Source: Massalongia carnosa
Taxonomy: Eukaryota
DNA length: 64,000 bases
Assembly: GCA_965645245.1 (NCBI GenBank)
Contig: OZ287075.1
Location: 1,612,001-1,676,000 of the forward strand
Direction of reading: 5' to 3'
Shown here: in pieces, positions 16,958-50,076 of the stretch
Layout: each line of letters opens with the position of its first letter
Numbering within the stretch: position 1 is the stretch's first letter
Translations under genes and position numbers: made by a program
Notes under the pieces: generated by a model
Database searches by the model: none
What the model saw: only the letters and a program-made list of their open reading frames with translations
What the model was told of the DNA's origin: nothing

Positions 16958-18270
16958 AGTCGGCACTCGAAAGTCTGTACTTTGCACTCTGTACAGAGTA
17001 CTGATACAGTCCTAATCATCCTCCAATGAGGTTCTTTCTATCTTGTTCTGATGACTGATACCTAATGCGTAAAGCCTATTGCGGCAGTGGGATCACATTG
17101 AACCCTTTTTAAAACCAGGGAAGTAAGGGCTGGCCTAGGAAGTCCTAGTGAAGCTCATACATAGCCCATACCTCATGCTTACAGAGTAACAGCCTGTTTT
17201 CCCCCATTACACCCCAGACAGAACGCGTATGCCTTTGACGCCTCTCCCGCAAGGCGTGATGAACCTCATCGAAAGATTGGAGATTCGAACAAATACCTTT
17301 CTCATCGTCTGCCATGAGAGCCACTGGTTCTGCATGGGAAACACTAGTGGAGCAGGATGCCATAATGGTTATTGAAAACGTATGCCAATGCTCCGTACTG
17401 AGCTTGTGAGATCTAGGCATAGGCACTATGGTTTGGGCCATAGTCATGACATTCATGGAGGGCTATGTTGGGGCGTGGCCCCATTTTTTTAAAAACAAAA
17501 GCCAATCAGTTCGCGATGGTGACGAGTATTTGCCATTCGCCAACTCAGAGCCCCTGTCTTCTCCAACGTATTGTGCAGGTAAAGCTAAAAATCTTCACCA
17601 CGATTGAAAGACCAAAAATAATTGCGATCTTGCGAGGACTGCTCTGCACCTCAGGACTCTTCCGCATCTGAAAGAAATATTCAGCCTCGACACAATAAGC
17701 TATTTGCTGGATTCTTGATGTGTGTCGTAGCCCATGCTCGAAGTGCGTCACTCATGCCTCGAGACTGTTGGGGCCCATATGTGCTGGTAGCTGGTCCACA
17801 TAAGGTAAAAGACGAGAGAGAAGAAGGAGAAATGCCACAAATCTGCACCACTTTCGCTGGTTGATCCCATGAACTCTCGTTACAAGGAGTTTGCAGGAAT
17901 TTGCCTTATCACCTGGGAAAGAGAGAAAGGGGAGCCATCGCCAGATCTCGAGCTGACTCCCCTTCAGCGGTCTGCCTTCCGCTGACAACTGGAAGCCTTG
18001 ATTTTATGACGACAGATTGAAGACGTAGCGTCGCGAGCATCCTAATACTCTCGAAAGACCAACAACCTTACACCACAAGGTTCTAACGTTAACAGAACGC
18101 TGAGAGAGGTTCCTTTGAAGAGTACATGTCTCGGACTGCGTACGTTAGATCGAAGGGGCCTTGGTCAAGAGCTCGAACAATGAGGAATTCAATGCAAGCA
18201 CAAGCCTAGGTATGAAACCAAAAAGGAACACTCCCACCCTCAACAAATTTCGAAGGATGAGACGAGAGAT

Positions 18271-18654
18271 GATGATGATGATGATGTATTCATACTCCGA
18301 TATGTCACCGGCCTTAGGCCGGCCCATGCGGGCAAAGCTATCTAAGTTATGTTACATGGAAAACCTTTTTCAGGTGTAAAAACCATATCCCTTGATACCT
18401 GTCCGATGTGACACCGGGTCGACGTCGGACAGGAGACGCAGAGCGAAAATCATGTGAGAACTGTGACGCCTTGTGAGATAAGAAGGAAAAGAGAAGTGAA
18501 ACTACTGTTAATTGTACAGTAGTGTAGATGCCAGTGAGAATTGGGTCAGTAGACCTGTTTTCATTAGCCAAGTAGTTAATATCTTTAGAGTTTTTGATGT
18601 TTCGGTCAGCTGTTGATAGTTGTTCGTGCCAGCGGCGCAAAACATCTGTTCTCT
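18271..18654 (-). mobile_element. Heavily 5'-truncated Tad1-like LINE (ORF2 C-terminus, 3' UTR, (CAT)n tail)
   Basis: Minus strand encodes GTNNYQQLTETSKTLKILTTWLMKTGLLTQFSLASTLLYS*, followed by the shared GCCCGCATGGGCCGGCC..GGCCGG motif and CAT tail; 14-bp TSD ATGAGACGAGAGAT at 18257-18270 and 18655-18668. Confidence 0.92.
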
Positions 18655-19317
18655 ATGAGACGAGAGATATCAATGCCCGAATGAATATAAATCGTTACAA
18701 GAGGCGCTTCACAGCATGTCTTTTTCTGAGCAGCCCGTTCAAGCTCCCCCTCACCTTGACCTTCACACTGAGTCTTCCCTCAGAAAGACCGAAAAAGCCC
18801 CAACCCGTTCGCTTCTTCACATTCGCCCCCTTTGTTGATCACTTTCCAACCATCTCGCTTAACGAAGTCTCTTTCCTACCGTTTTTGTTTCACATTTCAG
18901 TTTTCCGCTCTCTCTCCCCATTTAGTTTCTACAACGACATAGAGGGAATGAATCACACTTTACCCTGCAAACCGCTATCCTTAATATGCTACTACCTACA
19001 GCGTTAACTAAACCTCTTCCATCTTACTTCCTGTTTGGCATTTTCTCCCTCCCCGTCTCAACTTATCTTACCAACCCTCCATTTCCCTCCCCCGTATTCC
19101 CGTCCGTTCCGATCCATCCTCCTCTCCGCTCCTCTTCTCATCCCCCCCATATCCACTACCCATCCACTACCCCACTCTGCATTCCTAACAAGATTCTTCC
19201 CTCCGAACCCCTTCCTCTATCTCTAACCCACCAATCCACCTACCCCATCTACTCTCCCATCGCCGAACCGACTAACCAACCGAGCAACTAAACCGCTCGC
19301 CGTCCCTCCCTCCCTGC

Positions 19318-19390
<73 letters not shown>
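19318..19390. repeat. (CAT)n microsatellite, about 24 units
   Basis: Pure trinucleotide run, not preceded by the LINE 3' motif. Confidence 0.95.
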
Positions 19391-22198
19391 GTATATCCCA
19401 GCGTCCGGAAACCCATCCAATCTTTATTTATTTATTTACTATACCAACCCCCCCTCCCCTTCTCCCTTTCTCCCTTACCATCCACTAGTTACTAGGCTAA
19501 GTCAATCTCTTCAAAGTACACCGCCCATAGGCTTTTTTTCTTCTCTTTTTTTTCTACCAGTGGTGGCGGTGGTATTTTGTATGTAGGTATTTATGTATCA
19601 CACCAACTACCGGTCCATCCATCCATCCATCCATTCATCCATTACCAAGTACCAAGTAGAAACAACCAATGAGCCAAATCTGTCTCTCTCTCTCACACAC
19701 ACTCACACACAACCTACCTATCACTATATACAACAGATTCCGATAGATCGTCTCCTATCTCTATATATATACACTTACGCACCCTCGCAATTTAAATACT
19801 TTTCTTCAAGAACGCGATGAGCTATGTTGCTCTATTCATCGGTTTCCCGCTCGTTTGGGGAGGGGGGTTTCCTTGGAGTTGTAGGAGTATGGAGATGTGG
19901 GGTATGGGTAGATACGCAGATGGATTCTCAGTCTCTTCTATCTCCCTCTTCCGTTGCTTTTTTCTTCTTCTTGAGTCTAAAGCAGAAGGAAACGAAGACA
20001 GTCTGACTGTCTTCTTCTTCTTCTCCTTTTTTCGGTTGTAAAACCCCTCTCACCCCCCTCCCCTCAAGTAAATTCAACTCACAAAAGAGAACGAACAAGT
20101 TACCTAGTTATCCATCTTCGTGTGTGGTGTCTGTTTCCCCCCGCCTTGACGATGATGTGAGAGAAAGGTAGAGTGATTTTCTTCTTTTAAATTTCTTCTT
20201 CATTCCCTTCCCGTTTTCCCAATTTTTTTTTCTTTCTTTCTCCCTACTCTATTCACAACAACCCATCAATTTAATCAGCCCATCATTCTCATCTCTCTCG
20301 CGCGCGCTCTTCTTTCTACTATTCATTCCCTCACTCTTTCCAAAAGCGAGAAAACCGCAAACTGAGCCCCTCGGTTCGCCAACTCCTTTAATCCTCTCTC
20401 TTTCCCGCCCCCATTTAAACAAGACACAAAAAGAGACAGAATGACAGAAGATAGAAAAGGATGAAACGGTCAACGAAGCAAGCCGAGAAGCGAATTTCAG
20501 AAGACAAAAGAAATGTGAACGAAGTGTTTGGGGGGGGCGGGGGAGGGGTTCGATCGATTGAGACGAGAAGAGAGTAAGAAGAAGCGTTTCTTTTCGTTTT
20601 CTCTCCCCCTCGTCATTCATCCATACTACTTACTCTACTCACACTGCTAAACCCACACGAAGCAAAACCTACATATTCTCCCTCGCGTGCCAAACCCTCA
20701 AATCCCCCAATCCAGCAGCTATGAATCATCGACCGAAAGGCATTTCCGTCTTAAACCACTATGTACGTATATTTGTAATCTTCCCTCCACGCCATTATCG
20801 AATTAGATAGAAAAGGGGGGGGGAGGGAACGAAATTGGGCTCAGGATGAGAGGATGGAATAGAGAGAGAGGTTGAGAAGAAGAAGAAAAAAAGGGGAGGG
20901 GGGAAGGGAAAGAAGAAAGGAGAGGAGAGGACAAGAGCGGAGAGCGAAGTAAAGAAAATAGACTGAGAGAAGATCGAGAGAAGAACAATAATAGAAAAAG
21001 GGTTGAGAATTAAGCCATTCATTCATATCTTCCTCACTGTAATCCAAGCACGCTTTCTTTTCAAATTCTTCTTTCCCCCCGACCCGACCCGACCCGTTCA
21101 TTCCCTTCCATTTTCCTCAACCCCCTCACTTCCGCCCCCCACAACCCAAAACAAAGAAGAAGATTACCCATCCATCCATCTCATTGAATCCCCCCGCTCG
21201 TTCATACGTACATACATACATGAGCAAGCGAGTAGCATCTGCAAACCGGATTGGGGAACGTATCTGGTTAAATGATTTGATAGAGAAGGATGTGATGAGA
21301 AGGGAAAATAAACAAGGGAAGGAAGTGAGTTGGTGCATGAGTGAGTGAGTGAGTAATGGGGATTGATGTGGGGGGGGGGGGGGAGATTAGGGGGAGGTTT
21401 AAGGAAAAAAGGGGGGGGAAAGGAAGGAAGACAGTAAAATGCGAGAAAGAGAAGACACGATCCGAAAAACTGTAAACCACGGCATGCAATGACATCTCTC
21501 TCACCCACTCACTCATTCGCTTTCCGTCATTTCGATCTTCTCTAGAATTACAGGTTCCGAAACCTGAACGAAATACACCACCTAACATTTATTTATCCAC
21601 AGGGATGAAGCCGCTACTCTTCCTCCCCCAGCCGCTCTAGCGTTCATCCATCCACCCCGTGCAGCAATGAAAAAAATGCGCACTTTATCCATCCCTAGCC
21701 CATCCCATCCAAGCCAGCCCTGCCAGCAATTCCTCTGGCGTTTCCCGGGGAATAATATTCCATTAATCTGTAGAATTAGAGAGTGAGCAAGAGAGAGGAT
21801 ACAAGAAACCAGCTTGGCTCAAAGCAAAGGCGCCGCGGTGGAGAGCATAAAATTTCATCAAAAGACTTGCATCCAGCTTATTGAGCCGACAAGGAGCGAA
21901 GACTTTTACATGGTGTTTCTTGATGACGGGGGATAGGTAAGTAGGTTCGCTGGGAGGGGATATAAAAACGAAACATAGACACATGGGTCCCGTGTGATCC
22001 CAACACGGATTTTATGCATGGCAAGATGCAACGAAGTGGCAGATCTCGAATAGGATGACAGCCAGCAGTGCGGGAATCCGTGTCAAACCGCAAATGCACA
22101 AGCGAACAAACGGTTGGGGAATAAACAGGTCGTGAGCGGTCATTGTACAGGAGGAGCGAGAGATGAGATGCGAGGAATCCGAGACTGAAGATACGCCA

Positions 22199-23420
22199 TC
22201 ATAGAAGGATTAGGTAGTTTGAAGGTGCAATGCCCGTTTCGCCTGTCTCCTTCTTCGCCTGCCACCACCGCCCGCTGACGTCCGACACCTCGAGGATCTC
22301 GTGCTTGGAGAAGCTAATCTCGTTCGCGTCATCCGGGTTCGCTTCGTACGAGTAGATGGCCTTGGCGCGGTATGGGTACTCGGTCGGAGACCCAACATCG
22401 TTTCGTGGGTCGAGATGGTCACCCAGGCCGCCCATCGGGGCCACCGTGGTAGGCGTTTGTAAGGGGGAATTGGACGCAACGGGTCCGCCGAAGCGAGGCT
22501 GGGATGCGTTACGGTCATTGGCACCTGCAAGCCCTCCGGGGTAGCCAGACACCGGCGACGACGTCTCAAAGCCGTTGAGTTGCGCGGACGTGTACATCTG
22601 CGGGGCGTTGTTTCCTGATATGGTTGTTTCGGGCCTGCCGTTGCCGTAATGAGGGCTTATTGGTCTGCTGTGACGCATTGATCCGCGCTGCTCTTTGTGC
22701 AGGGCAAATGAGTCTATGTAGCCGCGATGGGCGGCTTGAGGGGTTGATCCAAAGTAGAAGATCCACACAACCTATGGACTGGTCAGGCATCGCACTGCCA
22801 TCGAATAAGACCTGCACCTACCGATACCATGGAAAGTAGTATATACCCAGCCGCAGCGGCTTCTTTAGCGCCATCGGACTCATATACTAGTATGTTGGTA
22901 ATCGAACTTGTATAGGCAAGACCCACAGATAGGAAGCCAACAATCTGAAAACATCAGCATGCGAGAGAGAAACCGATAGGGGCCTTGCGTACAGCTACGT
23001 GATATGTCTGCGCTGAATCCGACGCCATAACTATCAACACTCCAACAATGCAGCAAAGCATGTACGCAACAGTCCACCACCCAAAGTTAGGGTAATCCGA
23101 CCGTATGTTTGAGATCAGTGATGCGATGAAAGTTATGAGCCAAGCTAGCTATAGCACGAATATCGTCAGCCATATAATTCTCCACTCCTGACCCATCCTG
23201 CGCCGGGGAGGGGGCGACGCACATATGCAATTGATATCGTCGCAAGCGCAAATGGATCTCCGATGATATGCCCTGATCGATTTTAGCGAGTGTTTTTTTT
23301 TTCCACCGTTCCATGCAGTTTACCAAAACTAAAACCGCGCCCGAGACCACGTTGATTGCTATCCATATGGCCGTTCATTTTTCGAAGTGATGGTGGGTTG
23401 AGACTGTCGTACGAGGGCAT
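22199..23420 (-). CDS. SHO1: High-osmolarity signalling membrane sensor Sho1 (4 TM + SH3)
   Basis: ATG at 23420; spliced exons [46 protein letters not shown] and SH3 domain [39 protein letters not shown]...[11 protein letters not shown]. Confidence 0.95.
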
Positions 23421-25505
23421 GTGAAGCTCACAAGGGGGAATTAAATCGCTGGAGAGGGTGAATTCGTTGTATTGCTGGTCATGAAGGGAATTGGTGAGTA
23501 AATTCGCTCAAGGTAGGATGAAAAGAGAAAAGGATTGTTGGGGTGCAGTCGAGATCCGAGGGGTAAGAGGAGGCGTGCCGTGTTCCTTGCGTAGGCCGTT
23601 GTGTGGAAACGAAGAAAAACGAATTTCGCACTGGCCCAGGAAGTGCGAGAGAATATGACGGCCGTTGGGTTGCTGTTGAGCAAGACAAGCTAAAGGTCAC
23701 GGAGATGGTCAAGAGGTGTATTTCTGGATGAGGTTTGAGGTTGAGGTTGGTCGAGAGGTTTGCGACGACCAAGTTTAGTTTCCAAGTTGAAAGAGGGAGT
23801 TCATTAAGTTTCAGGCTGAAGTTACGGAACACCAGTGACTAGGTTTGTTATGGCAGCCCTGTACGGATCGATACGGAAGAGGTAATCAGTACGGATACAG
23901 AATAGATACAAGGCTCATCGGTCTAAAGAGGTCTCATTTGATTTGCTGGGTGCCGGTAGAGTATTCTCTATACGGAGTACGTAACACTCCATACATGCCT
24001 CCTGCCGCCTATCTACCGCCTATCGATGGACTTTGTAGCTATTATTTACCATGTACGGGGTATCTGTATCATTTCGCACGCGCCCTTTCTCCCGTACATA
24101 CAACGATTTTATTTTTAATTACCGAATGGTAAATGCCCTATCAGACTCGCCCTGACGAGCCGCCCATCAAGATCAAGTCTCATCCATCGACAGAGCCTTT
24201 TCTATGGTCTGATTCCTAGGTAGTTCTAAATATTGCTTATTCGTTGTCACGATCGTATGATCTGCTTCGATTCAATGAAAGAATTATGGCTTCACGTATC
24301 GCAGATCTGAAGTGTTTAGTTCATCGAGCAGAATAAGACGAGGGAAGATATTACATCAAATGAACAGTCACAAATCACTCATAGAAAGATAGCTACAAGA
24401 AAAAAACTACTTTGATTTAGCCTTGTTAAACATACAGTTTATTGATGTTGTCGTTGTCGTTGTCGTTAATTTGTGTCAACAACGCCAACAATCATCCGGT
24501 CATCAGCGCAAAGCGTCGTTAATGTCAACATAGTCCCATAGGTCTCATTGTTGATGTTCATTATCCCATGCAGAGCTTCTTCAGTTTCCTTGTCAAAATC
24601 ACACTCATAGGCTGCTTGACAACAAAGTAACCAACTGACAGTTTCATCTCTCGACTTGAGCGATTAAAACATAAAATTAAGAAATGTAGTAGGCATATGA
24701 CAGGCTATTTTGAATCGGACTTCGCTCAAAATACTCTCTCGACCCCTTGAAGCGTACAAACTTACACTGAACGAGTAAATTCAACGCTTTCTCCGCGATT
24801 TGTGTTTCAGCATGAGACTGCTTGAGATGTAGCTGAAAAGTGCAGTCGGCATCCTACCGCTTTACCTTGACGGAACATAGGTCAGGTCATGGTGATCTTC
24901 GAGAAGATTCTCAAACCTATTGAAAACCCTCGGAAACTGTTGTTCACTACTACTCCATTCCGTCCTTTGATTTTTCGAATGTGGTTTCAGAATAGGGTTT
25001 CATTGAGAGTATTCAAGGCTTGCATCGACCGACTATGGTGTCTTTCTGAGTTTATAATGTGCCTTCCCTCGTGATTGAGCAGGCTTCAGGTCTACGAGAT
25101 CCAACGATCAGCTTGCCACCTTCTCCACTCTTATGATACAATGGAAAAGCTTGATAGTAAACGATCTTGCACTCGAGAGCAATGCAGTTAAATATCATTT
25201 CCTAAACAGTGCTCCTGATATTCTGAGCTCTTTTCACCGCTGAATATCAGAACTCGATACAGATAAGACTCGAGACGGACGAGCCTACACCATCGGTCCT
25301 CCTCCTTCTACACCATCGGTCCTCACCACGGAGACGCCAAAGGCCTCACCGTGGGGCGACCGTCAAACATAGATTTGCTCCTATCTCTTCGCATCAAAAC
25401 AATGCTAATTTAACGCGTTCACACGCGTCGCAGACGTACGTACGGAAGAGGATACGAAGGCCAACCGCCGGGGGGTAGAATGCGCGCGTCCCTGCACCAT
25501 GCTTC

Positions 25506-26218
25506 TAAGGGTTCAAGTCCCTTCATGCAGTCATCAGCTGGAAGAAGATGTGGACCAAAGGAGCCGCATCATCCCCCACCCGGGCACAGTCGACACGCGT
25601 TCTAGCTCCTGAGAGTTCAAGTCTCCCCATGCAGTCATCAGCTGGGATCAACAGAACGCGTAAAGGCACCGGGGCGAATGCTGTCACCTCAAGAAAACTC
25701 CATCTCGGAGCAGAATAACAATATCCCATTTAATAGGCCCGGCCTGTTAAATAAAATCGAGGAAAACAAAGTCACAAAACACATAGTCATCAATCACACG
25801 TTGTACAAAGCACACAGTCACAAAGCACACAGTCACAAACATACAGTCACAAACACACAGTCACAAAACACACAGTCACAAAAAACACAGTCACAAACCA
25901 ATAACACGTCCCTGTGAAGGGGGTTCTGCGGGGGCTCGTTAAGACAGATCTGCACCCCGTTAATATCGGAGTACATATTTTTAGAGGTTCAAGTCCTTTC
26001 TAGCAGTCATCAGCTGAAAATAATGTATTTTGACACGGGCATGGTGTGGATTTGACACGGGTAGACCTCGATGGATCACAAAACGAATGAAAAGAGTTCA
26101 GCGGAACTTCGTTAATATTGTTCTCGAAGACCTCGTTAATAAGATTTTCATAGACCTCGTTAACAACGTTCGGTCATACTCTTAAAGGTTCAAGTCCTTT
26201 CATGCAGTCATCGGCTGA
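25506..26218 (+). repeat. Four dispersed ~36-bp repeats with T-arm/B-box-like hairpin
   Basis: Copies at 25506, 25610, 25982 and 26183; consensus TARRGGTTCAAGTCCYTTCATGCAGTCATCAGCTG. Confidence 0.85.
25763..25897 (+). repeat. 13-14 bp minisatellite (ACACAGTCACAAA)n
   Basis: About 6 good copies plus 2 degenerate copies. Confidence 0.85.
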
Positions 26219-28553
26219 GAGCTAAAGACGTACGACACGGGTCAGCTATGTCTATCACACGGGTCTCCTTCGTCTACAACACGGAGCCCTCCGGCTGAAA
26301 GAAATAAAACATATAGACACATAGTGTAGGGTCACACCCTACACGATACAAGGGATTTGGGTTATGAAAACCATCCGATTGATGGCTACCGTGAGCAACA
26401 CGGCCCGAACCGGAGTCGTACCGGGGATGGTGGAGGCAACCTAGTCATCAAATAGGACACCCTTGGGACAAGAAGAGGGCAATATACGAGGAACCCGTTA
26501 ATTGATAACAGTCTAGGCCCTGAGCTAATAGACGAATTTCAAACGAGCACCCCTCCGAGTTGTCCTCGACTTGTTTTGGTTAGTAGGGACGGAAATCGAT
26601 ACTATACTGCCTGGTCAGGAGCATAGCTGTCGAAATCCCTGCGAGACATGGTCGGTTCATAAACGGGAGACCTTTATGAATAACGCGAAGTGGGCGTAAA
26701 AAACCCGTGAGGCGTGGTATGCAATGGCGGCCACCGTACGGAGACCGTCTGCATAGCCCGAGAGGACAGTATGCGCATGTCGGTGTATATAGAGCAGGGA
26801 ATGTCTATCTCGCTCGTAACGAGACCCCGTCGGTTCGCCGGCGCATGGGCTACGGCTAGACTCGCCCTTGATATATGCTTAAGGAGTAAACTGGGTTTGA
26901 CCTGGGCGAAAGGGACGTCGTTCACCCCAATCGTAGAATTCATCAATAGTCTTGGGCCGTAAAACGCACCAGTGAGATGAACGAAAACTGGGATAGAGAC
27001 TTCACGAAGGAGATGTCAACTCTATTTTATCATTCTTAGCCCGGCCATAACATATGGTTCTACTATATGGCACATGCCAAAGGATATAAAAAAATCGAAC
27101 GGCATCTCAAACAAGCTAGCCGTCATACAGAATAAATGCTTACGAACTATAGCTGGAGCATTTAAGGCGACCCCAATAGCGGTATTGGAAGCAGAAACGT
27201 ACATAGCTCCTATTGACATACATCTAGATCAACTTCAGACGCAGGCTAGACATCGCTTGTGTCAGGGAGGTCAAAAGAAATTCATCATCAATGCATGCAA
27301 CTCTATTGCAAACAAACTCAGAGGCCGGGCTGGACGCAAACGAGCTCCTGCGAGTACCCCGGGAATGCTGAAACACGCATGGGCCAAGAAAATAATATCG
27401 GACACACATAAAATCGCGTCGCCGGTAGCGCACCCACCATGGGCCGAACCGCCCCCGAATACAGCTCGAGAAATTGAAGAGGCGCGGGCGGCTCAAGGTA
27501 AAATAACCGCAAAAATAAAAAAACGATATATAGACGCATGGCAGACCTCATGGAAAACATATCAGAATCGCACATCTACGCCTACTCCAGCACAGGTAGC
27601 CCCACTAACCAAAAAAGGCATCAAATTACACAAAACTCTAGCCAAAGCAGAAAGCGCTCTAACTATCCAGATACGCTCAGAAAAGATAGGCCTAGCCGAC
27701 TTTCTATTTAGACGTCACGTCCCCGACGTCCTAACACCAAACTGTCCATGTGGCTGGCCGAAACAAACCGCGAAACATGTAATCATGTTTTGCAAACTTA
27801 ACAGCAACAGACAGTCAATGTTACGTTCTATAGGCACAAACAACTATCGACTAATTACCGACTCATCCAGAGCGATGAAACTAGTCACCGCTTGGTTAAT
27901 GAAGACCGGCTTACTGACTCAATTCTCAATGACAGCACAGCATTTATATCATTGACAACCACACGTCAAGTCGCTAAAAGGCGACTTTCCTTTCCTTTAA
28001 CCTGTCACCGGTCAACTATTCTTCAGATAGATCCCTCGACCGAGACTCGAAAAGTGTTCGGAGAGATGTCGGATTACTTGGTTTTTCTTCCTTAAAAGGT
28101 TTTCCATGTATTATATAATTCCATAGATTTGCCCGCATGGGCCGGCCTTCGGCCGGTACCACATCGGAATAAGAATTATCATCATCATCATCATCATCCT
28201 GATATTCTAATACAGGTTTACAATAGAGCTTTGCGTCTATTTATTTGAATTATTGAGGGGTAACTATTCTGATTCAAAAGCCAGAGATCTTTCTTCTAGA
28301 TTCACATTAGTTGAACGTGCCGAGCCTTTCTTTACTGCTACTTCTCAAAACATGAAATACTGAAAAGATCGCAAACATAACTACAATCTAAGTCTCGAGA
28401 GAAATCGATGATTGGAGATACAACGAGTACGAAATGAAAATATAATAATACAGGCGGCTGTCTTGTTAAAACGAGGAACACTATATCTACAACTTTGTGG
28501 AATGTTTATAACCATCTCCTTTTATGGAGAGGCTTTGCTTCCGCTTCTATGTA

Positions 28554-30119
28554 CGAAGGATGACGCCGAAAGTCCTTGCTAACGCTAAATATGCAGCTAA
28601 AAAAGCCACTTTACATGGGTATATTTGCATGGATAGATATTTATTATACGGTCGTACGACTCCGATCTCTCTGCCTTCTCTATACTCGTTACCTCCGTCT
28701 AACAATATCACCTCGTCAACATGTCGCTTTATACGTTCAATCCAGGACTGAATTCTTTTCTGCGTCAAATCCTCCGTCCAGCACTTTGTCCAGGCCTTTT
28801 CAGCCTCAATACGAGTCCGCGGAGCACTAATCGAATGATTCTTCGCTTCATCCAGAACCAGCAAGGCTCGATCATGTTCAGATCAGGAGAATTTCTAAGC
28901 CATAACAGACGCATGACGTTAAAATCCACAAAGATCAGATTTTGATGTTTGGATGCGTGACTGGGGGCCTTGTCTTCCTGTACGATAGTGTTTGGTCGAT
29001 CTATCATACATTCTTTTGCAAACGGAAGAAGCTTAGGAATTAAGACGAGTTTTTGATAACGATACCAGTCTACTCCTCCCTTGCCATCTCGAACGACTTT
29101 ACCGTGTGTTTTATCCCATTTCCAGATAGGTTTTCGACCTCCTGGATTACGTAGCTTCATTCGTCTCATGCTGGTTTCTAACTCTCAATTCTCTTTAGCT
29201 TCTGATTCTAAAGTCTCATTGAGTTTATCTAACTCAATTTGAGCCTCTCTTTTCTCTTTTGCGGTCTCTGTTTTCCAGATATGAAAAGGTCCTTTCTTAT
29301 CGTACGAAAAACAGCCCCAAAACAAAAACTCGGAGCATCCTTTCCATCTACGTCGAATACACGTTTTAGCATACATTTCTTTCGAGGTACGCCACTGAAG
29401 TCTTCTTCCACGTCTAGAACCCAATATAATGCTTGTTTCTTCAGTCCATGTAACGTTCTTCCAATCATCAACAGTCCAGTGCTGATATCGCAAACAAAAT
29501 TGCAGACGAGCCTCTTTCATGATCGAATCTAGACCTGGCTTTTTCGTGCTTTTACAGGGGCGAAACCCATTCTGTTTAAGCGTAGGAAGTATAGTAGTGG
29601 AGGAGAGTTTATGATCAAAGCCAATCATAGCTGATGATTTTTCTCTGCTATTTCGGTCTTGCATTACATTATTCAATATAAATTGCTCTACCTCCGGTGT
29701 AACCTTTTTAGGTCGTCCTGAACGAGGTGCATCTTCTATATATTCTACTTCTAAAACACGAGATACAGCTGGATCATATCCATGCTGTCGTGCTTTGATT
29801 TTGAGAGCTGATATCGATCTTGTGGAGACTCCAGTCACTGCTTGCACGATTTTTGCCGCAATTCCGTGTTCTACAAGCGCTAAAGCCTGTATTCTTTGTG
29901 CAATCGTGAGACTATTGCTCTGTGCATTGGGCATGATAATGATGATGATTAAAACCTTCTACTGAATATCAGATGTAGTATTACTGTCTTTTTGACGACG
30001 AGAACAGAAGCAAATTCGAGATTTTCTAGACTATTTTAGTACTATATTCCCCTTGTAAGCTAATAAACACTAATGCACGTCTCATGTACGCTAGCAAGGA
30101 CTTTCAGCGTCATCCTTCG
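28554..30119 (-). mobile_element. Tc1/mariner DNA transposon
   Basis: ~30-bp TIRs CGAAGGATGACGC(C/T)GAAAGTCCTTGCTA, TA dinucleotide on both sides (28552-28553, 30120-30121), internal transposase. Confidence 0.95.
28620..29934 (-). pseudogene. Disrupted Tc1-family DDE transposase
   Basis: HTH region and RSGRP linker, WTEETS (first catalytic Asp reads as Glu), VQEDKAPSH, SPDLNMIE; in-frame stop at 29185-29187 and a frameshift near 28820. The 3' end is approximate. Confidence 0.88.
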
Positions 30120-30168
30120 TACCCCTTAAAGGTATCGCAGGCTTCATTTAAAAAGTTGACAGTTTAAG

Positions 30169-32586
30169 TAGGGCTAGGATATGTATTAAACATGTTTATT
30201 GACTAACCCGATCGGGAAGTGTTTAATACGTGTCAGTTGGCCCAACTGACAGACACAGGGATTAGCTACAGGGGGGGCGGAAGAAGCGGGAAGATAGAAA
30301 GTGGGGAAAAGATACTTTATTTTGTTAGCAATTTGCGTACAATTTTATGTACTACTAGCTAGGTGTTTATCCAAGCTCTCGTCGCATCACCAAATATCGT
30401 TTGACTCGCCGGTCTTTCGATGATGACATGGACGTATCAGATAAAGAGATCTCTTCTTGCAGTAGTCTATCCTCCATCTCACAAAGATCCGTCTCATTGA
30501 TGTCGATGCCAGCAAACTGAAGCTTGCTTTTGAAATCTGTTGGCCGATTAAGAGTACACTCATTCATGTAAATAAACATGAGTTTATCGACATTGATGGA
30601 ATGTAGAGAGTTCCGACTTTTGGTCATGATCAAATTCATGACCGACCAATTTCTTTCTGCCAGCACCGAATTAGCAGGCAGCATTATTACCTTTCTAGCT
30701 ATGTTGCTGAGATCAAAAGCAAAGCTTCTGGAAAAGTTCCAAAACAGCTCCGAATCCGTTTGATATGTCCAGCATTCGGAGGCAGGATAAAAACCGTCTT
30801 CTTGATTTCGAAAAGAAAGCCATTGCTTCATTGCCGACTTTGCTTCTTCAACGTTCAGATATTCAGCAAAGAATCTATGCATGATAGAGAAAAATGCCTG
30901 CGACGTGGATACTCCAATCACCTGAATGTTATGATTCTGAGGAACCAACAGAGCTGCTACCACATGAAGTTCAGTTATTTGACTGAGATATCGATCTTCC
31001 CAAACTATCTCTGCAATGTGATGCAAATCCATCTCAGAATCTTCATCCTCTTTGGCCATTGTATATAGGTAAGATCGAAGCCTGTTCCAATTGGCAGTCA
31101 CCGCGTACAGTTTATGCCCCTCGGCCTCGGACATGTATTGTGCTTTATGTATGGGATCAAGAATTTTCTGTACGATGGCCAGCTTTTTCCAAAACGAGAA
31201 GTCGTTGACGAATGTTCCTAAAGGATGACTTCTGCCCTGATCAATGCCCGGAGCATTTTGCTGAAAAATAATCCAAAATTGCCTGCTTGCTTTTTAGCAC
31301 CGAGTTCAAAAGGCCTACAGTCGTACCCCATCTGGTCAAAACGTTGAGAATCAGTGATTGACGTCGATTGTATGCCTTTGAAAGTTATAAATTAGCAATG
31401 ACGTTTTGATGCCGCATTGAAATTTCATTCCTACTTACCTTCATCTGAAAATTCCATAGAATGGCCAATTCTTTATTCGATCCACGAAAAGCTATCACTA
31501 TCGACTGAGCTTTTTGCATGATGTCTGCAAAAAAAGGAAGCTTCAAAATGTCTCCCAAAAGAAGCTGTAAACCGTGACTGTCGCAAGGAACGAAAAAGAC
31601 GTGTCTCATCTCAGGAAACTTTCGAATTTCAGACCACATGGCCTTCATAGTAGAGCAAGTATCTGTTCCTATACAATTGACTCTCCAGAGCTGATTATTG
31701 GTCGCTTCTCTACAGCCTTTTATCATCCACTCAGCTTGAACAGCTGCAGTCATCGTCTCAGCGATGCCGGCCATTGCTTTTAAATGAAAGCCCCCCCCTC
31801 GAGAGGTAGCTGATGAAGGGACATGACAACAGAGATTAATAACCCGTTCCTTCTTAATGTTGGCCGTTTCGTCGGTAAAGAAGTTGAGATACTTAACTGC
31901 AGGCATCTAACTGCTGATTTACTTTCAGTTTAACCGTCTCATAGGCGTCGTCCAATAAGTTCCCGCCAACGAGCTTATGATGTGGAGGTTTATATCCAGG
32001 ATGCAGTGCTTGATGATGAGCAATCACATAGGGATTTTCGAAGTGGTTAAACGGAAGATTGGTCATAAAGACGGACATTGCAGCAGCGCGATGAGCATGC
32101 GCAACTTGGGCTTGATTTAAGGGACGAATCAAAGGGGTGATGGGCAATTGAATCAAAGATTTGCTGCTCCTAGAAGACGTCTCTTGCTGTCTTCTTTTTT
32201 GCACTTCTTGAAAGGCATTGCATGCCTGCAAATGCTGCTGACCCCTGGTAGCAACTTTGGCAGACTAATATCCGCAATGCGTACAACGATGCTGAGGGTA
32301 TTTCATGCCTTCAATGATGACATCAACGAAATTCTCATCTACCAATGCATTTTTCGGTCGACCGCCAGAATGTCCAGATTGTCGAGACATGATCAATGTA
32401 TGTATAGAGATAATAGGAAGGTACCTCAAATTAGGTAGAAATGTCTAGTAATTTCAGGTATTGATCTATGAGAAAGATATATTTGACATGCTTAAGTAAT
32501 ATTATACCAAAAAGACAGGGTCCAAGTCTGCACGTGACGTATAATACGTGTCAGTTGGCCCAACTGACGTATTTTTCCTAGCCCTA
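30169..32586 (-). mobile_element. hAT-superfamily DNA transposon
   Basis: 11-bp TIR TAGGGCTAGGA; 8-bp TSD AGTTTAAG (30161-30168, 32587-32594); subterminal palindrome GTCAGTTGGCCCAACTGAC near both ends. Confidence 0.95.
30367..32390 (-). pseudogene. Disrupted hAT transposase (BED finger, DUF659-like core, dimerization domain)
   Basis: ATG at 32390, CTHC...H...C BED finger with an internal stop, FFTDET, GTDTC, VPCDSHGLQLL, TRWGT, PANSVLAERNWS; several frameshifts. Confidence 0.88.
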
Positions 32587-41270: not shown

Positions 41271-41563
41271 ATCAGCTGCTGACAGGTGGGGGTGCTGTCA
41301 GCCGTGCGGGAATCAATGTCCCGAGCTGATTTTTTGTCAGCCGTGTCAGTTTACGTTCTGACACCAGCATGCAAATTAGGTGGCTGATCAGCTGCTGACA
41401 GGTTGGGGTGCTGTCAGCCGTGCGGGAATCAATACCACTGATGTCCCGAGCTGATTTTTTGTCAAGCCGTGTCAGTTTTACGTTCTGACACCAGCATGCA
41501 AATTAGGTGGCTGATCAGCTGCTGACAGGTGGGTGCTGTCAGCCGTGCGGGAATCAATACCAC
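41271..41563. repeat. ~116-127 bp tandem repeat (about 2.3 units) rich in TGTCAG/CTGACA inverted pairs; terminal region of the Crypton
   Basis: Unit ...GCTGACAGgt(g)ngtgCTGTCAGC...GATGTCCCGAGCTGATTTTTTGTCAGCCGTGTCAGTTTACGTTCTGACACCA; the second half recurs at 50076-50130. Confidence 0.92.
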
Positions 41564-42214: not shown

Positions 42215-44711
42215 TCACCCTCGCTTGCCCTTCTTGATCTCGTTGGCCAGCCCGTTCAACTGTAGTACTCCTCGCTCGCTATCCAGCTGCTTTGCCATCT
42301 CTTCACGTGAACCTGCCCCAGCCCGGCGAGTGAAGTACTCGATGATGGTAAGTCTTTGGAGTAATACTGTCGCTCTTTAGCAGGCTATCCTCGTCTCCAG
42401 CCGGAACCATAGCTGGAGTTTAACTTTCCCACAGCTGGCCCGGTGCCCAAACCAACAGTCCACTCCCTCCACAAATCCACCACTGAACAGACCTGTCGAT
42501 TCAAAAAATAAGAAGACGAGGCCGGAAGTTCGACAGAGACGTCAGCGCTGAAGAAAGCAAGCGCATGCTCGGATGGCGAGGGCGAGCGGGTGAGACTATG
42601 AGGCCGAGAGCGACGAGAGCGGGGGCGATGAGAGCGAGGAGTAGGAAGATCGTGAGCGGAGGGGCTCGAGGAGAATGAGGTGGTGGCCGCAGGGGGGTGA
42701 AGCAATGGATCGAGCGTATTTAGTGGAATCGGTGACGTAGCTCGAGGCAATTGACAAATCTGGGAGGGGGTCAAGGTGAATGTGACCTTGCCGGTTAGAA
42801 AATCATCCAATTTGCCTTCCATCAGACTGAACAGCTCCCTTTGTTTCAAGAATCCAGCGTTCATCAAACTGGTGAGGCCCACATGCAAAGCAACCACCTG
42901 CTGACCCAAGTGAGGCAAGGCAGTACGAATCAAACTGTTTTGATCCATCTCCTTCTCGTCCAGATGAGCCAAAACATCCGCAGCAAAAATGACATACTCC
43001 GGCAGAGAAAACAAGCGATGATTCCACAAAGGATGCTGAGGATATTTCTGTCGAAGAAGCACGGAGTCCTGCAGAAATACCACACGAAGATAGTCTAATA
43101 GCCTTACGAACTGAATAGTGGCTATATCATCGAAAGAATGCTTCAACCACTTGTCTAGAGAAGGCCAGAAAGAAGACAAAAGCTCTGAAGATGGCGTGAC
43201 TGCTGCTCGAGCGATATGATAGGTTCCAGGATGCTTTGGATCGAATCCAGCAATGCCTCGCATGAATTCTCTAGGCAGGGACGTAAGATAGCCCTTGTGC
43301 ATGGAGTCGGTAGTCCAATGAGCTGCACGACGTATCTGATCCTCCTGAATGCCTTTCAGCTCGGCATACTTTGTTCCAGAACCTCGCCCAGCATGAGTGA
43401 CCTTGCTATAGGTGAGGCCGAGGGGACTGTACACGCTGTGAATCCATTTGCGCTGGCTGGAATCAGAGATTTCTTTGCTGACGTCTTTAGGAGAGGCTAT
43501 TAAACAAGAATCGTCAGTCGCATTATATCACTGAATTATTTCGCCGAACTGATAAAAACAATACAATAAAATGAAGGCAGATTCAGAGAAAAAACGATAT
43601 TTTATTCAAAAAAGGGGGGGAAAGCGGAAAACTTCGAAAGCAGATGGACGAATTGAGAGCAATTTAGTGAAATGGATTGAACAAAAAGAAAAACTGTGAG
43701 AAACGTCGTCAAAACAGTGAGAAAATGAAAGAAAATCTCCAAAACTCACCGATCAGGACTCGTGTATTATACCAGTCCTTATTGCTTCCAAAATTCGGAA
43801 AAGGTTCACCCGATTGCTCCCAACGCCAGAAAAAATACACCGATAATGCACTCATACCACAAAGCGAAAGGTCCTTGTGCCTCAGTATCCCATTGTACTC
43901 GATGCGCCCATTCTGATTGGTTTTACCATTGCCCATGAGGTAAAGCAATGCCGGGCAGGGCGAGGGACCCTCGTTGTCAAACATGAGTAGCTGTAAATCA
44001 GGAGACTCACCCCGAGCAAGAAGAAGGTGTCCCATAAGATAATCTAGACGTCCTCGTAGGTTACCTCCGAGAATGGAGGCCTTGAAGGAGTAAGACTGCT
44101 TCCAAAACTCCTCCAATATTTCCCGGAGGGCCTTTTCATCATAGCCATCTGCTACCGTTCCTCGACCTCGATCCTCGAAGGCCAGCTTCTTCTTGATATG
44201 CTGATTTCGCGAAGAATCCTTCATAAGAGACTTCAGCGCATTGCCATTGGGATGAGGACGATTGTGCTGGCCTCGGGAAACTTGATAGGACCACAGCTCT
44301 ATCAGCGCAGTCTTGTATCCCCTTATTGAATTGTATTTGAGAGTTTGAGAGTCCTGATCCTCGTCCGAGTCAGAGTCGAGGGCTTGAGCTTTGCGATTTT
44401 TCTTTGCCCGGTTCATGACCCTGTCCTGAAAAAATCGCACCACTTTGGCTTCATGTACAATTTCTCCATCATCATAGTGATGCTCTTCGCAGAAAATCTG
44501 TGCCTCAATTAGTCAATTTAAAAAATCCACATAGCCTAATGAGAGTGAATTTTAAAAGGGGGGTTACCTTCCATTCCTTGACCACCCGAGTATACGCGCG
44601 ATTGGTGTTTTTAGGCCTGCTAATTTGCGTCAAGGCCAGGGCAGAGTGCTGTGCACGAAAATTGGCGGTGTCATTGTCCAGATTACGCTGAACTTGTTCG
44701 ACGGTAGCCAT
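42215..44711 (-). pseudogene. Crypton tyrosine recombinase (Ndc10-II-like YR + C-terminal GCR1_C domain), damaged
   Basis: ATG at 44711 (RPKNTNRAY), introns 44567-44498 and 43749-43497; motifs LLARGES, NGKTNQNGRIEY, RHKD, KVTHAGRGSG, AAHW...KGYL; GCR1_C VVDLWREWTVG...GSGWRR. Stop at 42385-42387 and a frameshift truncate the tail. Confidence 0.87.
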
Positions 44712-45034
44712 TGGTAAATATTTGATAAGGGGGAGAGTGACTGTGTATTGGAGGTGTTCTGCGCGTGCGACCGATAGGGCTGAGATTGAACGCGGGCGCA
44801 AATGTGGTAGGGCTGAAAAGTGAAGAATTTGAGCTGAATAATTAATGAAGGCGTAGGTGAAATTTTGATGCTTAGTAAGCAAATGGCTATTTTTTAACCA
44901 GTAATTAGATGGCAGCAGGTGCTTATTTATATGGTAGCAGGCTATAAGTTCACCGTGAGACATCAGAGATATCACTGGGGATTTTGGTGGGGCTGGGTGC
45001 GGATATCACTGATGTCCCGGTGATCGAGGACGCG

Positions 45035-46496
45035 ATGAACATTCAACTCGAAAACACGTTCGTGATCGCGCACGCGGAGCAGAGAGATCAACTGCTGTTC
45101 AAGATAGATGACTATCTGATAGGTATAGGAGACGGAGGGGAACCGGAGGGAACAGGGATTCTAGAGGAGGTGAAAAATTTTCTCGATAATCAGAGAAGCA
45201 TCGACAACAACAACGAAAACATACCGAAGCCCATTCACGACACCCTGACTGAAATACAAAGAAGTCTAGCCCGTATCGAAAGTGCTAAGACAGCCACAAC
45301 AACCACAAACAGCTATTCCGCAGCCGCCACCAGAGGTCAAGCCTCCGAGGCCCCCGATTCCCCGCCGCACCAAGCCAATCACTTCTTCAAAACAAACCGA
45401 ACCCTCACCACAAGAAGTTCGTCAGGCCAGAGCAATGACCGTAGTCATTTCCAGCGCAAGCGACAAGGAAAAAATAAAGAACATGCCCACAAAAGATCTC
45501 GTGGAGACACTACAAGCAGAAACGGAGGGGATTCGGGGAGTTTCCCGCCTCATAAGCGGAGATCTCAAAATTCACACGGAATCACTGGAAGTCAAAAAGA
45601 CTCTACAAGAGAAGTCGGAATGGACCCGAAAAATAGCCGACTCAGCGGCGATTAAGACACGGACATACTCGGTCAGAGTAAATGGTGTCAAGATGGAACA
45701 CGTCAAAACCGCCAACCAATCGCAGGCCATAGGGTACCTGCAGACTGCTAACGCACGCCTGCACCCGAACCTGCAGATAAAGAAAATAGCCTGGTCCACC
45801 AGGGCTATAAGGGAAAAGAAGGCGCTACATATGGAAGTCGCCACCGCCGAAACGGCCAATCGGGTCATAGCCGAGGGTCTCATAATCGACTATGAAATCA
45901 AAGACTGTGAAAGATTCACAAAGGGATGCACCATGACGCAATGTTTTAATTGTCACAAATATGGTCATATAGGTCGATCATGTCCCAACCCCACCGCCTG
46001 CGGTCACTGTGCTGGGGCTCACCCTAGCACCGAATGCAACATGGAAACAACAGGTAGATATCGAAGATGTGCTGCATGCAGTGAAAAGGGACACGAAGCC
46101 TGGTCAACATCCTGCGAAATCAGGAAAGTCGAAAAACGCAAAGCAGAGAGGGCCATGCAAAAACGGGTCCCATTCTACCCAGTAGTCGCCCCCGTACCGG
46201 CCCCGTTCAGGTTCCAGAGCGAAAACATCAACCCGGTCCTTGGCAGCACAAACAGCAAAAAGAGGAAAACCGTACCCCCCTCCGATACCCCCCCGAATCC
46301 CCCACGAACGGGAACATCCTGGGCTGACACGGGCATCATGAATCCAGAAAACATGACAAAGGCCCTTGCAAAACCAGTTGTAGGTAGACCCCCACTCAGA
46401 CCCCGAGCTGTATCTACTGCCCCGGCGATAATCAGAGCAAACAACACCACCAACGACCCCTCGACCTCCCAGGCCGAATCAATGGACGTCCTATGA
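45035..46496 (+). CDS. LINE ORF1 gag-like zinc-knuckle protein (one frameshift near 45380-45400)
   Basis: QCFNCHKYGHIGRSC, CGHCAGAHPSTEC, CAACSEKGHEAWSTSC. Confidence 0.85.
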
Positions 46497-49400
46497 GGGA
46501 CACGAAATCTCTCTCCATATTGCAGTACAATGTCAGAAATGACAGAGTGAGTACAATGTTACCCCTCTTAGCCGATCCGAACACTCAAGACTATGACATT
46601 ATCGCAATTCAGGAACCCTGGCGCAATCCATCTATTCCTACCACGTTAAGCTCTCATCAAAGTGGGTTTCATTTATTATATCGCCCAAATGGAGACACCA
46701 GAGTGTGTTTCTACATAAATGATACTATTGACCCTGATAGCTGGGAAGTAAAGTATCCGTCGGCCGACATGTGCACCCTAAAAATTCGAATGAAAATTGG
46801 AAACACATCAGACGTGATCCACGTCCACAATGTGTATAATCCCTCTTCCATTTCCTATTCTTCTATAGACAGTCCGTCCACGCTAGCAACAGTGAAACGC
46901 CAATTAATTGCAGAGACAAAACACATTTTACTGGGCGACTTCAACCTACATCATCCATTGTGGAATCATTCGTCGAGGCCTACTCAACATGCGGAGTCGG
47001 AACAATTACTGAACATAATTGAAGAGGCAAATCTATCACTAACACTTCCAAAAGGCACCATTACATGGGAGGCTAGACAATCGTCTAGCACAATCGATCT
47101 TGTATTCATGTCAGAAGAATTAATGGATAGACTAGAACATTGCATGTCAAGACCGGAACTCAATCAGTCGTCCGATCACATTCCGATCTCCACCCGAATT
47201 GCGCTGAACAGTGAGGTTCAAACAATCAGAGAACGCAGGGCCTGGAAACTGACGAACATGAGAAAACTGAGAGAAGCGGAAAAGAGGGCGCCCCCCCCGA
47301 AGACCCCCCGATCCCCCGCCGAAATCGATGCTTACACCGTGTCAATTCAAAAATTTCTTCAAGAAGTGATAGAAACCTCTGTACCTTGGGCTAGACCCAG
47401 TAAGTACGCCAAACCCTTTTGGAATGATGAATGCAGTGTGATCACGAAAGAAACTCGTAGGCTCAGACGTGTCTGGTCCAATTCCAGAGACATTTCTGAT
47501 TGGATAACATACACAAAATCCAATCACAGAAAACAAAAAATCATTCAAAAGGCTAAAAGACTGTCGTTCCGCAAGGAAATAGAAAAAGCCACCGAATCGC
47601 CTACTGGTCTCTGGCGACTAGCCAAATGGGCGAAAGACAAAAGTGACCAGACAAGAGAAATTCCCAAAATGCCCAAGCTCGTTCGAGACGACCAAGTAGC
47701 AGAGACGTTCGAGGAGAAATCGGACATGCTAAAACAGAAATTCTTTCCACCCGCCCCTCCGGCCGACCTCAGCGACATAGAGGGTTCATTTTACCCCAGC
47801 CCGCCACAATGTCCAATGATCATAACCAAACTAGAGGTGAGAGAAGCCATACGCCGACTCAAGCCCGATACGGCCCCGGGTCCGGACGGAATAGCGAACA
47901 GAATTGTAAAGGCATGCTCGGAAAAGCTAGTCGAATTACTCACCCCACTGTTTCAAGCATGTGTAGAACAAGCATATCATCCTCGTGCATTCAAAACCGC
48001 CAACACAATCACGCTCAAGAAAACAGGCAAGGATGACTATTCGGCCCCGAACGCCTATCGACCCATAGCACTCCTAAACACGCTTGGAAAAGTAATGGAA
48101 TCCATCATGTCACAAAAAATAACCCATCTAGCGGAAACCCACCGACTCCTGCCCGACACCCAGATGGGCGCCAGACGAGGAAGATCAACCGAATCTGCAC
48201 TAGAATTGTTGACTGAACAAATTTATACAGTGTGGGGCCAAGGCACAGACAAAGTAGCCACATTATTGAGCATGGACGTAGCAGGAGCCTATGACACAGT
48301 GACACATCGAAGACTGATTCACAATCTTCGCAAAATGAAAATCCCAAAATGGATCACTGACTGGGTGAACAGTTTTCTGAATGAAAGAAGCACTACCCTG
48401 GCGATTCACAGCCGAGTCACGGGCATATTCGATGTAAAAACCGGAATCCCACAAGGCTCCCCCATTTCTCCTATTCTTTATCTGTTCTACAATGCAGACC
48501 TACTAGACATATGTGAAAGACCAGGCAGCAACACGAGTGCTCTAGGCTTCGTAGATGACATCAATGTGCTAGCATACGGAAAAAGCACCGAAGAAAATTG
48601 CAAGACGCTAGAGGTAATTCACAAAAAATGTGAAAAATGGGCAAGTCGACATGGTTCAGTCTTCGCTCCGAAGAAATACGAATTGATACATCTGTCAAGA
48701 AATCCGAAGAAATTCAACATGTTCACTGTTATTCAAATAGGAAATAACATCATAAAACCAAAGACAGACATCAGAATTCTAGGACTTCAAATCGATTCAA
48801 AATTGAAATGGGGTGCTCACACAAGGAAAATCCAGGAAAAAATGACAAAACAATCCAGGGCATTGACAAAAATATCCACCTCCACATGGGGCGCCACTCT
48901 TCTAAAGGCATGCCAGGTTTACACCGCCGTAGTCCGGCCGGCCATGACGTACGGCTCCACCATTTGGCACATGCCAAAAGAAATTCAAAAATCAAACGTC
49001 ATCTCAAACAAACTGGCTGTCATACAAAACAAATGTCTAAGAAACATAGCTGGAGCCTTCAAAGCAACGCCCATAGCTGTACTTGAAGCAGAGACATTTA
49101 TAGCCTCAATTGACATACATTTAGATCAACTACAGGCCCAGACCAGACAACGCCTGTGTCGAAATGATCAAAAGAGTTTCATCACAAATGCATGCAACAA
49201 AATAGCCAATAAACTTCGAGGTCGGCAGTCATCACTCCAGGAACGCTGAAATACGCCTGGGCCAAGAGAATCACATCGGAGGCACATGACCCTCCAACAC
49301 CGACACCAAATCCACCATGGGCCGAATCCCCCCCGAATCTCGCCCGAGAAATAGGGGAGGCACGCGCCGCTCATAACAAAATAACTGCTCAAATAAAAAA

Positions 49401-49833
49401 ACTACACACATTTGCATGGCAGGCCTCGTGGAGATCATATCAGGAACACACACCCGTTCCCACCCCGGCACAATCAGGTTCACTCTCCAAAAAACGCATC
49501 AAATTGCACGAAACTCTAGCCAAGGCGGAGAGCGCGCTAGCCATTCAGATACGCTCAGAAAAGATAGGCCTAGCCGCCTTCCTACATAGACACCGAGTCC
49601 CAGACGTCTCGTCCCCGAACTGCTCATGTGGCTGGCACAAACAGACTGCAAAACATGTGATCATGTTTTGCAAACTCAACGACAACAGAAAAACTCTGCT
49701 AAATACGATAGGTACAAACAACTATCGATTAATCACTGAGTCATCTAAAGCAATGAAATTAGTCACAAAGTGGCTAATGAAGACAGGTTTGTTGTCACAA
49801 TTTTCGCTGACAGCACAGCATCTATACTGCTAA
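46493..49833 (+). CDS. LINE ORF2 endonuclease/reverse transcriptase (frameshifts after ~49230)
   Basis: APE motifs IIAIQEP, LLGDFNLHHP, SSDHIPI; RT motifs APGPDG, YRPIALL, GIPQGSPISP, GFVDD; C-terminal CSCG...HVIMFC; no RNase H domain seen. Confidence 0.92.
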
Positions 49834-50035
49834 CAGTAGGCATGCTTTGTTTCATTTTTCATACTTGTCTTAGATCAAAGGTTTTTTCATGGAGCACACG
49901 GCTGGGACCCGGAGGGTCCTCGGCCGGACACAGGATTGCATGGTTTTTCTTCCTCAAAAGGTTTTCCATGTACTATAAAACTAGATAGACTCGCCCGCAT
50001 GGGCCGGCCTTCGGCCGGTACCACATCGGAATAAG

Positions 50036-50076
<41 letters not shown>

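Follow-up and report, generated by a model that had tools for sequence, protein, structure and literature searches.

Composite retroelements that ride on long interspersed nuclear elements (LINEs) are well documented in mammals (SVA and U6-L1), and fungal composites of this kind are documented, to our knowledge, essentially through MINE. MINE of Magnaporthe grisea consists of WEIRD, a 1.1-kb non-coding sequence, followed by a 3′ part (230–5461 nt) of the LINE MGL, and it is flanked by direct repeats of 10–20 bp; 31 copies are given there, 28 junction sites were counted among 33 chimeras, one copy had inactivated an avirulence gene, and a solo WEIRD gene was not found (PMC2104539). The same source treats U6-L1 and other mammalian template-switch chimeras, in which again two parts, the 3′ one from a LINE, lie within a single set of target-site duplications (TSDs); there the 5′ partner is a known small nuclear RNA, and a chimera is usually a dead-end pseudogene (PMC2104539). 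Short interspersed nuclear elements (SINEs) and further non-autonomous elements whose 3′ end matches that of a partner LINE also depend on this LINE-derived end for mobilization, termed ‘stringent’ recognition (PMC3747384).

We describe here a 2,972-bp insert between positions 25225 and 28196 of a 64-kb stretch of Massalongia carnosa DNA (assembly GCA_965645245.1, contig OZ287075.1, positions 1,612,001 to 1,676,000, 64,000 nt; hereafter the window). We propose that it is probably a single LINE-mediated insertion, made by target-primed reverse transcription, of a bipartite element in which a non-coding module, termed X, is joined head-to-tail with the last 1,137 nt and the (CAT)7 tail of a LINE. 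Judged by its testable structural features, namely a TSD around the whole insert, a recognizable LINE 3′ end, and a 5′-truncated LINE joined directly to a non-LINE 5′ part on the same strand, the element is best read as a LINE-mobilized composite retroelement resembling MINE. The likeness is one of architecture. The positions of all features are given in Table 1.

The boundaries of the insert carry the proposal. The sequence-only reading of the window had claimed that the 12 bp immediately after the CAT tail recur about 1.8 kb upstream of the start of LINE homology, and this is exactly so: TCCTGATATTCT occurs twice in the window, with both strands scanned, and these are the two copies that flank the insert. 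A scan of positions 20000–27000 for 9-mers gave a single match that could be extended to 12 nt and one unrelated 9-mer at 22613, where by our own arithmetic a chance 12-mer match is expected about 7000/4^12 = 4e-4 times. The duplication falls within the ~10–20 bp of LINE-type insertions, and the TSDs of the three other LINE insertions measured in the window are 12–15 bp long, so that 12 bp is what the LINE clade makes here. As this single 12-bp TSD brackets both X and the LINE part, the two would have arrived in one insertion event, and the sequence predicted for the empty site is …AGTGC TCCTGATATTCT AATACAGG…. The feature is confirmed as real and correctly delimited, and the earlier proposal of one retro-insertion, with a 12-bp TSD and an unrelated non-coding 5′ module on a LINE 3′ end, is supported.

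The 3′ part of the insert is clearly LINE-derived. By blastn, 27041–28198 aligns with 48938–50060 of LINE1 (73% identity) and 27041–27255 with 57185–57399 of LINE2 (70% identity), LINE1 and LINE2 being the two full-length LINEs of the window. Against both of them the homology begins sharply at 27041, so the start seen by the sequence-only reading is real while its position moves from ~27039. A 5′-truncated LINE is thus joined directly to a non-LINE 5′ part, both on the plus strand, as in MINE. When the open frame 26981–27955 was used to search a protein collection (entries numbered P0004 and so on), an autonomous subfamily with the reverse transcriptase (RT) domain upstream was found (P0004, P0016, P0080, P0082, P0128, and others), and near-identity to P0004 starts at residue P21, the proline encoded at nucleotide 27041, and continues from there onward. 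At the junction P0004 and P0080 read ...QIYTAVVRPAITYGS where the window has ...QLYFIILSPAITYGS, and the autonomous subfamily proteins read ...KARQIYTAVVRPAITYGSTIWHMPKD where the window frame reads ...RRRCQLYFIILSPAITYGSTIWHMPKD. From its Met at 27074 to the stop, the window open reading frame (ORF) differs from autonomous P0080 at 4 of 293 residues and is letter for letter P0127, a protein found on one contig, which indicates that the tail comes from a very recently active LINE lineage. The conserved terminal domain and (CAT)n tail are common to four LINE lineages, among which the 3′-terminal ~105–125 nt are 82–85% identical compared to 64–73% for the coding parts, and in all four elements the domain holds GCCCGCATGGGCCGGCC-TTC/TAA-GGCCGG and the CAT repeat. 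Such strong conservation would be expected if the reverse transcriptase must recognize the LINE 3′ end.

Module X is of a different nature. It has no ORF of ≥150 amino acids, and the ten stop-to-stop ORFs of X match no Pfam family at E≤0.1. Neither tblastn nor Pfam detected an ORF1 remnant in X, and tblastn of X against LINE1 and LINE2 was significant only at the junction. Smith-Waterman comparison with the rest of LINE1 and LINE2, including their 5′ ends, gave scores of 21–30, where the maxima for shuffled sequences were 30–31. The earlier statement that this DNA does not resemble the LINEs of the window therefore holds in that no significant similarity was found over the 1,816 bp, with the qualification that a weak in-register likeness to the LINEs is seen in its last 60 nt, as discussed below. 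In X, neither inverted repeats nor long direct repeats were seen at the termini. On its sense strand the module has a slight excess of A (AT skew of 0.16, where the LINEs have 0.22–0.27 and the flanking DNA −0.03 to −0.09), and it is not depleted in CpG. Its repeats are largely as first described, with GACCTCGTTAA present twice, GACACGGG three times, and CTACACCATCGGTCCTC twice, to which CGTTAA (six times) and ACACGGG (four times) can be added, but what had been called a 13-bp minisatellite has a period of 15. Two units of ~200 bp (spacing 201–202 bp) each contain CGTTAA motifs, one of the T modules described below, and ACACGGG motifs.

The sequence-only reading had offered two identities for the element, a long non-autonomous SINE-like element borrowing the LINE tail or a template-switch chimera that had captured another RNA, and the evidence favors neither outright. 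A SINE transcribed by RNA polymerase III (Pol III) is not supported: ARAGORN found 0 tRNA genes in the whole window, an Rfam scan of 24900–28400 at E≤5 returned only the bacterial small RNA SpR10 (E=0.78, implausible and judged a chance match), and several T4–T5 runs lie inside X, which argue for RNA polymerase II over Pol III. X is multicopy and young and is therefore not the one-off capture of a single-copy RNA, but the same junction is confirmed for this copy only. Template switching itself is retained in the mechanism that we propose.

The evidence that X is a repeat comes from the protein collection, used as a shadow of the genome in which spurious ORFs of X were looked up for other copies; which ORFs are called in such a collection is haphazard. 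A 68-residue minus-strand ORF (25523–25729) is matched letter for letter on four contigs, and its 90% cluster holds 11 variants that are 92–100% identical, with 15 contig occurrences whose longest contigs have seven distinct sizes. One variant, P0071, is colinear with the window on to 25771, and another, P0074, is 100% identical over 25526–25729 and diverges immediately past 25729, from which it follows that this copy of X is rearranged beside the minisatellite. The second shadow ORF (26674–26943) has six variants (P0075–P0079 and P0130) with seven occurrences, and the variants align in order with the window over 26451 to ~27030. Specifically, P0078 implies an internal deletion of ~196 bp (~26577–26772) in another copy, while P0077, from a more divergent copy, includes the 3′ stretch of X to ~27030. 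As a protein shadow, P0130 matches 26943–26692 and then unrelated sequence, and so looks like a 5′-truncated copy of X, with a nested insertion in that copy as an alternative. When the 113-residue X shadow was searched against 1.84 billion representatives, three proteins were returned (P0075, P0076, and P0078), all already in the family, with neither a longer ORF spanning the junction nor a relative outside the X family. These matches show X, at the level of its protein shadows, to be a young, dispersed multicopy repeat, and one that, to judge from proteins, appears restricted to its lineage.

The four T-arm-like modules noted earlier are indeed present, as GTTCAAGTC occurs four times in the window and every copy lies inside X. 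Across the four aligned 43-nt modules, here called T modules, GTTCAAGTC and GCAGTCATC(A/G)GCTG are invariant. The structure was derived by eye and has an outer 5-bp helix around a 5-bp hairpin with the loop TTCAAGT; in each helix 95% of the cells are paired and three of the five pairs show changes on both sides. The observed covariation score was reached by none of 500 shuffles, and sliding the 3′ partners by 1–3 columns reduced the doubly changed pairs from six to 1–3, values that derive from four sequences of one element and from a structure drawn from those same four. In all four copies one of the pairs is U-G; on the opposite strand it would be C-A, which indicates that the structured strand is the sense strand of the element. 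The 5′ strands of the two helices are contiguous, whereas a tRNA has its T and acceptor stems contiguous through their 3′ strands, so ‘T-arm-like’ fits the loop and not the fold. Searching the whole window with a covariance model, with filters off, recovered just the four copies on which the model was trained; the next hit had E=1.2. Single modules were no more stable than shuffled sequences (z from +1.2 to −0.7), and folding of the 3′ half of X gave z=−2.0 for sense and −1.5 for antisense, based on only 20 shuffles and not decisive. A third helix was tried and rejected (25% of cells paired), as was a hammerhead or box C/D reading of the minus-strand CTGATGA, as Rfam returned nothing and the U-G pairs favor the plus strand.

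Our proposed mechanism begins with a LINE reverse transcriptase, supplied in trans, that would recognize an RNA by its LINE 3′ end and would prime reverse transcription at a staggered nick in the target. Two routes could then lead to the composite: (a) the enzyme may switch, at the ORF2 position corresponding to 27041, from LINE RNA onto an X-bearing RNA, or (b) a pre-fused X-LINE transcript may be copied to its 5′ end. In either case X presumably gives a transcription start or promoter from its nucleotide 1, which the LINE tail would lack, and perhaps adds RNA stability or binding sites, a role in which the four T modules may serve. We hold tentatively, with a confidence somewhat short of even, that the family arises by repeated switching of template to X RNA, as in MINE, with junctions that vary, and consider it rather unlikely that it is a fixed-junction family transposing as a unit. 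The parent subfamily bears on this distinction. It comprises three 90% clusters of four, five, and five members, all 14 of which were inspected; since X has a stop at 26978–26980 and offers no ATG, an ORF of the LINE segment that has X upstream, as in the window, is expected to start MPKDIKK. At least seven subfamily proteins continue upstream of the junction as ordinary LINE. P0086, a frameshifted singleton, and P0084, which starts later, at MLKHAW, are weaker candidates for the same junction, and the sizes of their contigs (1,633,556 and 2,812,471 nt) are also found among the X shadows, which is suggestive but weak. That most X occurrences appear unattached to an intact copy of this LINE segment fits the variable junctions of the MINE pattern better than a fixed-junction family, yet decides for neither.

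The junction itself offers a further clue, as the 60 nt at the 3′ end of X contain no stop in the ORF2 frame and have 26/60 identities with LINE1 in register, matched by 13 of 4,920 other offsets, and 24/60 with LINE2, matched by 53 of 5,248, the two comparisons being mutually dependent and post hoc. At the protein level the pattern is T.T...T.....Q.Y against the parent TSTWGATFPKARQIY, and upstream of 26981 the in-register match is at background. If this is real, the 3′ end of X would be a degenerate stub of a LINE, and homologous positions would have recombined at the junction, as opposed to a random jump. We can extend this to a scheme that we regard as unlikely, in which X would be a dedicated, structured ‘rider’ RNA evolved to exploit the LINE clade, its T modules would be functional (recruiting LINE proteins or host factors, or stabilizing the transcript), and the stub would allow the LINE tail to be renewed by template switching at a homologous position on fresh LINE RNA (‘tail-refresh’).

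Several observations weigh against a single insertion of an X-LINE composite and have to be set beside it. The X-LINE junction is demonstrated at the window copy only, and among the 14 subfamily members the ORFs that start MPKDIKK are limited to P0127, on one contig, and the frameshifted P0086. With 15 occurrences of X and few junction-type ORFs, most copies of X are not on an intact copy of this LINE segment. The contig counts may also pool several assemblies of one species. The GCC*A/U motif of MINE junctions is absent here, the LINE part starting with CCGGCCATA and a GCC-A step lying 6 nt inside, though that motif was defined on a different LINE, MGL. X could be the parent LINE's own 5′ untranslated region (UTR), and a 5-nt repeat, ATTCT, at 25220–25224 and 27032–27036 leaves room for a nested insertion.

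The first of these alternatives is an internally deleted LINE, in which X would be the true long 5′ UTR of the P0080-type subfamily and the element would have been retrotransposed after loss of ORF1 and most of ORF2. RIME/ingi-type derivatives provide a parallel, since these non-autonomous elements retain the 3′ end of the LINE and are mobilized in trans, as is proposed for the composite. They also keep the LINE's own 5′ end, whereas between X and the 5′ ends of LINE1 or LINE2 no similarity could be detected. The numbers of X occurrences (15 and 7) are of the same order as those of the RT-bearing subfamily proteins (P0004, P0015–17, P0080, and P0128), the sub-repeats of ~100–200 bp recall LINE promoters of the monomer type, such as mouse L1 has, and the AT skew of X is positive, toward that of the LINEs. 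Nevertheless, the full-length LINEs of the window have 5′ regions of less than ~300 bp without similarity to X, no remnant of ORF1 was found in X, and the 15 occurrences exceed the RT-bearing variants, the reverse of the usual 5′-truncation bias, a weak point given the bias in ORF calling. We judge this explanation quite unlikely.

A 5′ transduction is given little probability as well. Here a LINE truncated at 27041 would have landed 3′ of a copy of X and a transcript started in X would have been retrotransposed through both as one RNA; the product would be identical to that of template switching, the single TSD fits, and such neighborhoods can arise because X is a repeat, but one specific source locus is required and, with P0077 reaching ~27030, X must end naturally within ~10 nt of the point of LINE insertion. 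The ATTCT repeat, together with the multicopy nature of X, would also suit two separate events, a truncated LINE (~27037–28196) with its 12-bp TSD followed by insertion of X exactly at the boundary of TSD and LINE with duplication of ATTCT. That we consider highly improbable, since a 5-mer match is near chance level, X shows neither inverted repeats nor long direct repeats at its ends, a landing within a few bp of the LINE 5′ junction is expected ~1e-3 times genome-wide by a rough estimate, and the weak in-register LINE likeness of the last 60 nt of X is not predicted for an unrelated element.

A single insertion of a composite thus remains the reading that we favor, and among described systems MINE is its closest match. 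Both have a non-coding 5′ part of ~1–2 kb joined in the same orientation to a 5′-truncated LINE 3′ part, repeats of 10–20 bp, a 5′ part that is multicopy and lineage-restricted, and a fungal host; the LINE here differs in its (CAT)n tail, the junction lacks the MINE motif, and the four structured 43-nt modules of X have no counterpart in the sections of the MINE description consulted. Dependence on a LINE-derived 3′ end, here the conserved terminal domain of ~110–125 nt with its GC hairpin and short tandem-repeat tail, would be shared with SINEs of the stringent type. Unlike SINEs, the insert is 3 kb long, compared to 100–500 bp, lacks a tRNA, 5S, or 7SL head, contains internal T4–T5 runs that argue against Pol III, and includes 915 nt that code for ORF2, well beyond what a SINE tail contains. 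The 5′ partners of U6-L1 chimeras are also of another kind than X, which is 1.8 kb long and repeated, its near-identical occurrences numbering at least 15. A literature search of limited extent surfaced MINE and no description of this element, which does not show it to be unpublished. If this is a second independent fungal case, a young, multicopy, lineage-restricted non-coding head on a tail 4 of 293 residues from an autonomous copy would show this route of transposable element innovation to be recurrent and currently active. Two features deserve follow-up, the T modules with their covariation and the LINE-like stub next to the junction, and the four T modules are concrete, testable candidates for what the non-coding head contributes.

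Table 1. Features of the composite insert and of the other LINE insertions, numbered from the first letter of the window.
Feature	Positions	Strand	Details
TSD, 5′ copy	25213–25224	+	TCCTGATATTCT, exact 12-mer
Module X	25225–27040	+	1,816-bp non-coding 5′ part of insert; dispersed multicopy family
Two exact copies of CTACACCATCGGTCCTC	25285–25324	+	17-mers, 23 bp apart, near 5′ end of X
T module 1	25502–25544	+	outer 5-bp helix, T-arm-like 5-bp hairpin (loop TTCAAGT), conserved 16-nt stretch
T module 2	25606–25648	+	
Minisatellite	25766–25898	+	period 15 (ACACAGTCACAAAAC), 8.9 copies
T module 3	25978–26020	+	in first ~200-bp unit
T module 4	26179–26221	+	in second ~200-bp unit
Last 60 nt of X	26981–27040	+	open in ORF2 frame, weakly LINE-like in register
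LINE ORF2, C-terminal part	27041–27955	+	5′-truncated; first ATG 27074, stop 27953–27955
LINE 3′ UTR	27956–28177	+	last ~105 nt (28074–28177) are the conserved terminal domain, hairpin CCGGCC-TTC-GGCCGG
(CAT)n tail	28178–28198	+	seven CAT/ATC units; last 2 nt overlap TSD
TSD, 3′ copy	28197–28208	+	TCCTGATATTCT, exact 12-mer
LINE1, full-length	45020–50075		TSD ATCACTGATGTCCCG at 45005–45019 and 50073–50087
LINE2, full-length	52992–58380		TSD CATCATCTTTGGAT at 52978–52991 and 58381–58394
LINE of a further lineage, ~385 bp, heavily 5′-truncated	~18654–18269	−	TSD ATCTCTCGTCTCAT at 18668–18655 and 18270–18257

The sibling LINEs show further regularities at their ends. The minus-strand copy (18257–18668 with its TSDs) still has the conserved domain at its 3′ end, with a (CAT)6 tail. 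In LINE1 and LINE2 the first 3–6 nt of the TSD (ATCA and CATCAT) can equally be read as CAT tail, compared to only 1–2 nt in the composite insert, and this overlap suggests that the nicked target may anneal to the RNA tail during priming. The ORF1 frames of both elements lie less than ~300 bp from the 5′ ends set by the TSDs. A G is the first base after the 5′ TSD copy in the composite (25225), LINE1 (45020), and LINE2 (52992), and the first ~30 nt of X and LINE1 have a loose ...ACTCGA... pattern in common that is not significant by Smith-Waterman.

The window has a fungal look, and genes of common kinds occupy its left third (RRM, PROPPIN/WD40, septin, Bax inhibitor, TLC, Bot1p, and SH3). From ~25 kb on the window is crowded with mobile elements, comprising at least four LINE insertions of the apurinic/apyrimidinic endonuclease (APE) plus RT type, a Tc1-type helix-turn-helix (HTH), hAT fragments, and an ORF of the NDC10_II/GCR1_C type. 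Directly 3′ of the composite insert, on the minus strand, 29185–31906 holds fragments of a Tc1/mariner-type transposase HTH, an hAT dimerization domain, and DUF659, so that the composite landed in DNA already rich in transposons. Farther along, minus-strand ORFs with NDC10_II and GCR1_C domains (42385–45005), a pairing known from Crypton-like fungal elements, stop exactly at the target duplication of LINE1 (45005), and LINE1 therefore appears to have inserted into that element; an ORF beyond LINE1 (50739–51209, minus strand) had no Pfam match. A local tandem duplication of ~170–180 bp with 92% identity lies at 41271–41563. At 19319–19390, beside G-rich low-complexity DNA, is a (CAT)n/(ATG)n microsatellite of ~24 units, the same trinucleotide as in the LINE tails yet without a LINE body.

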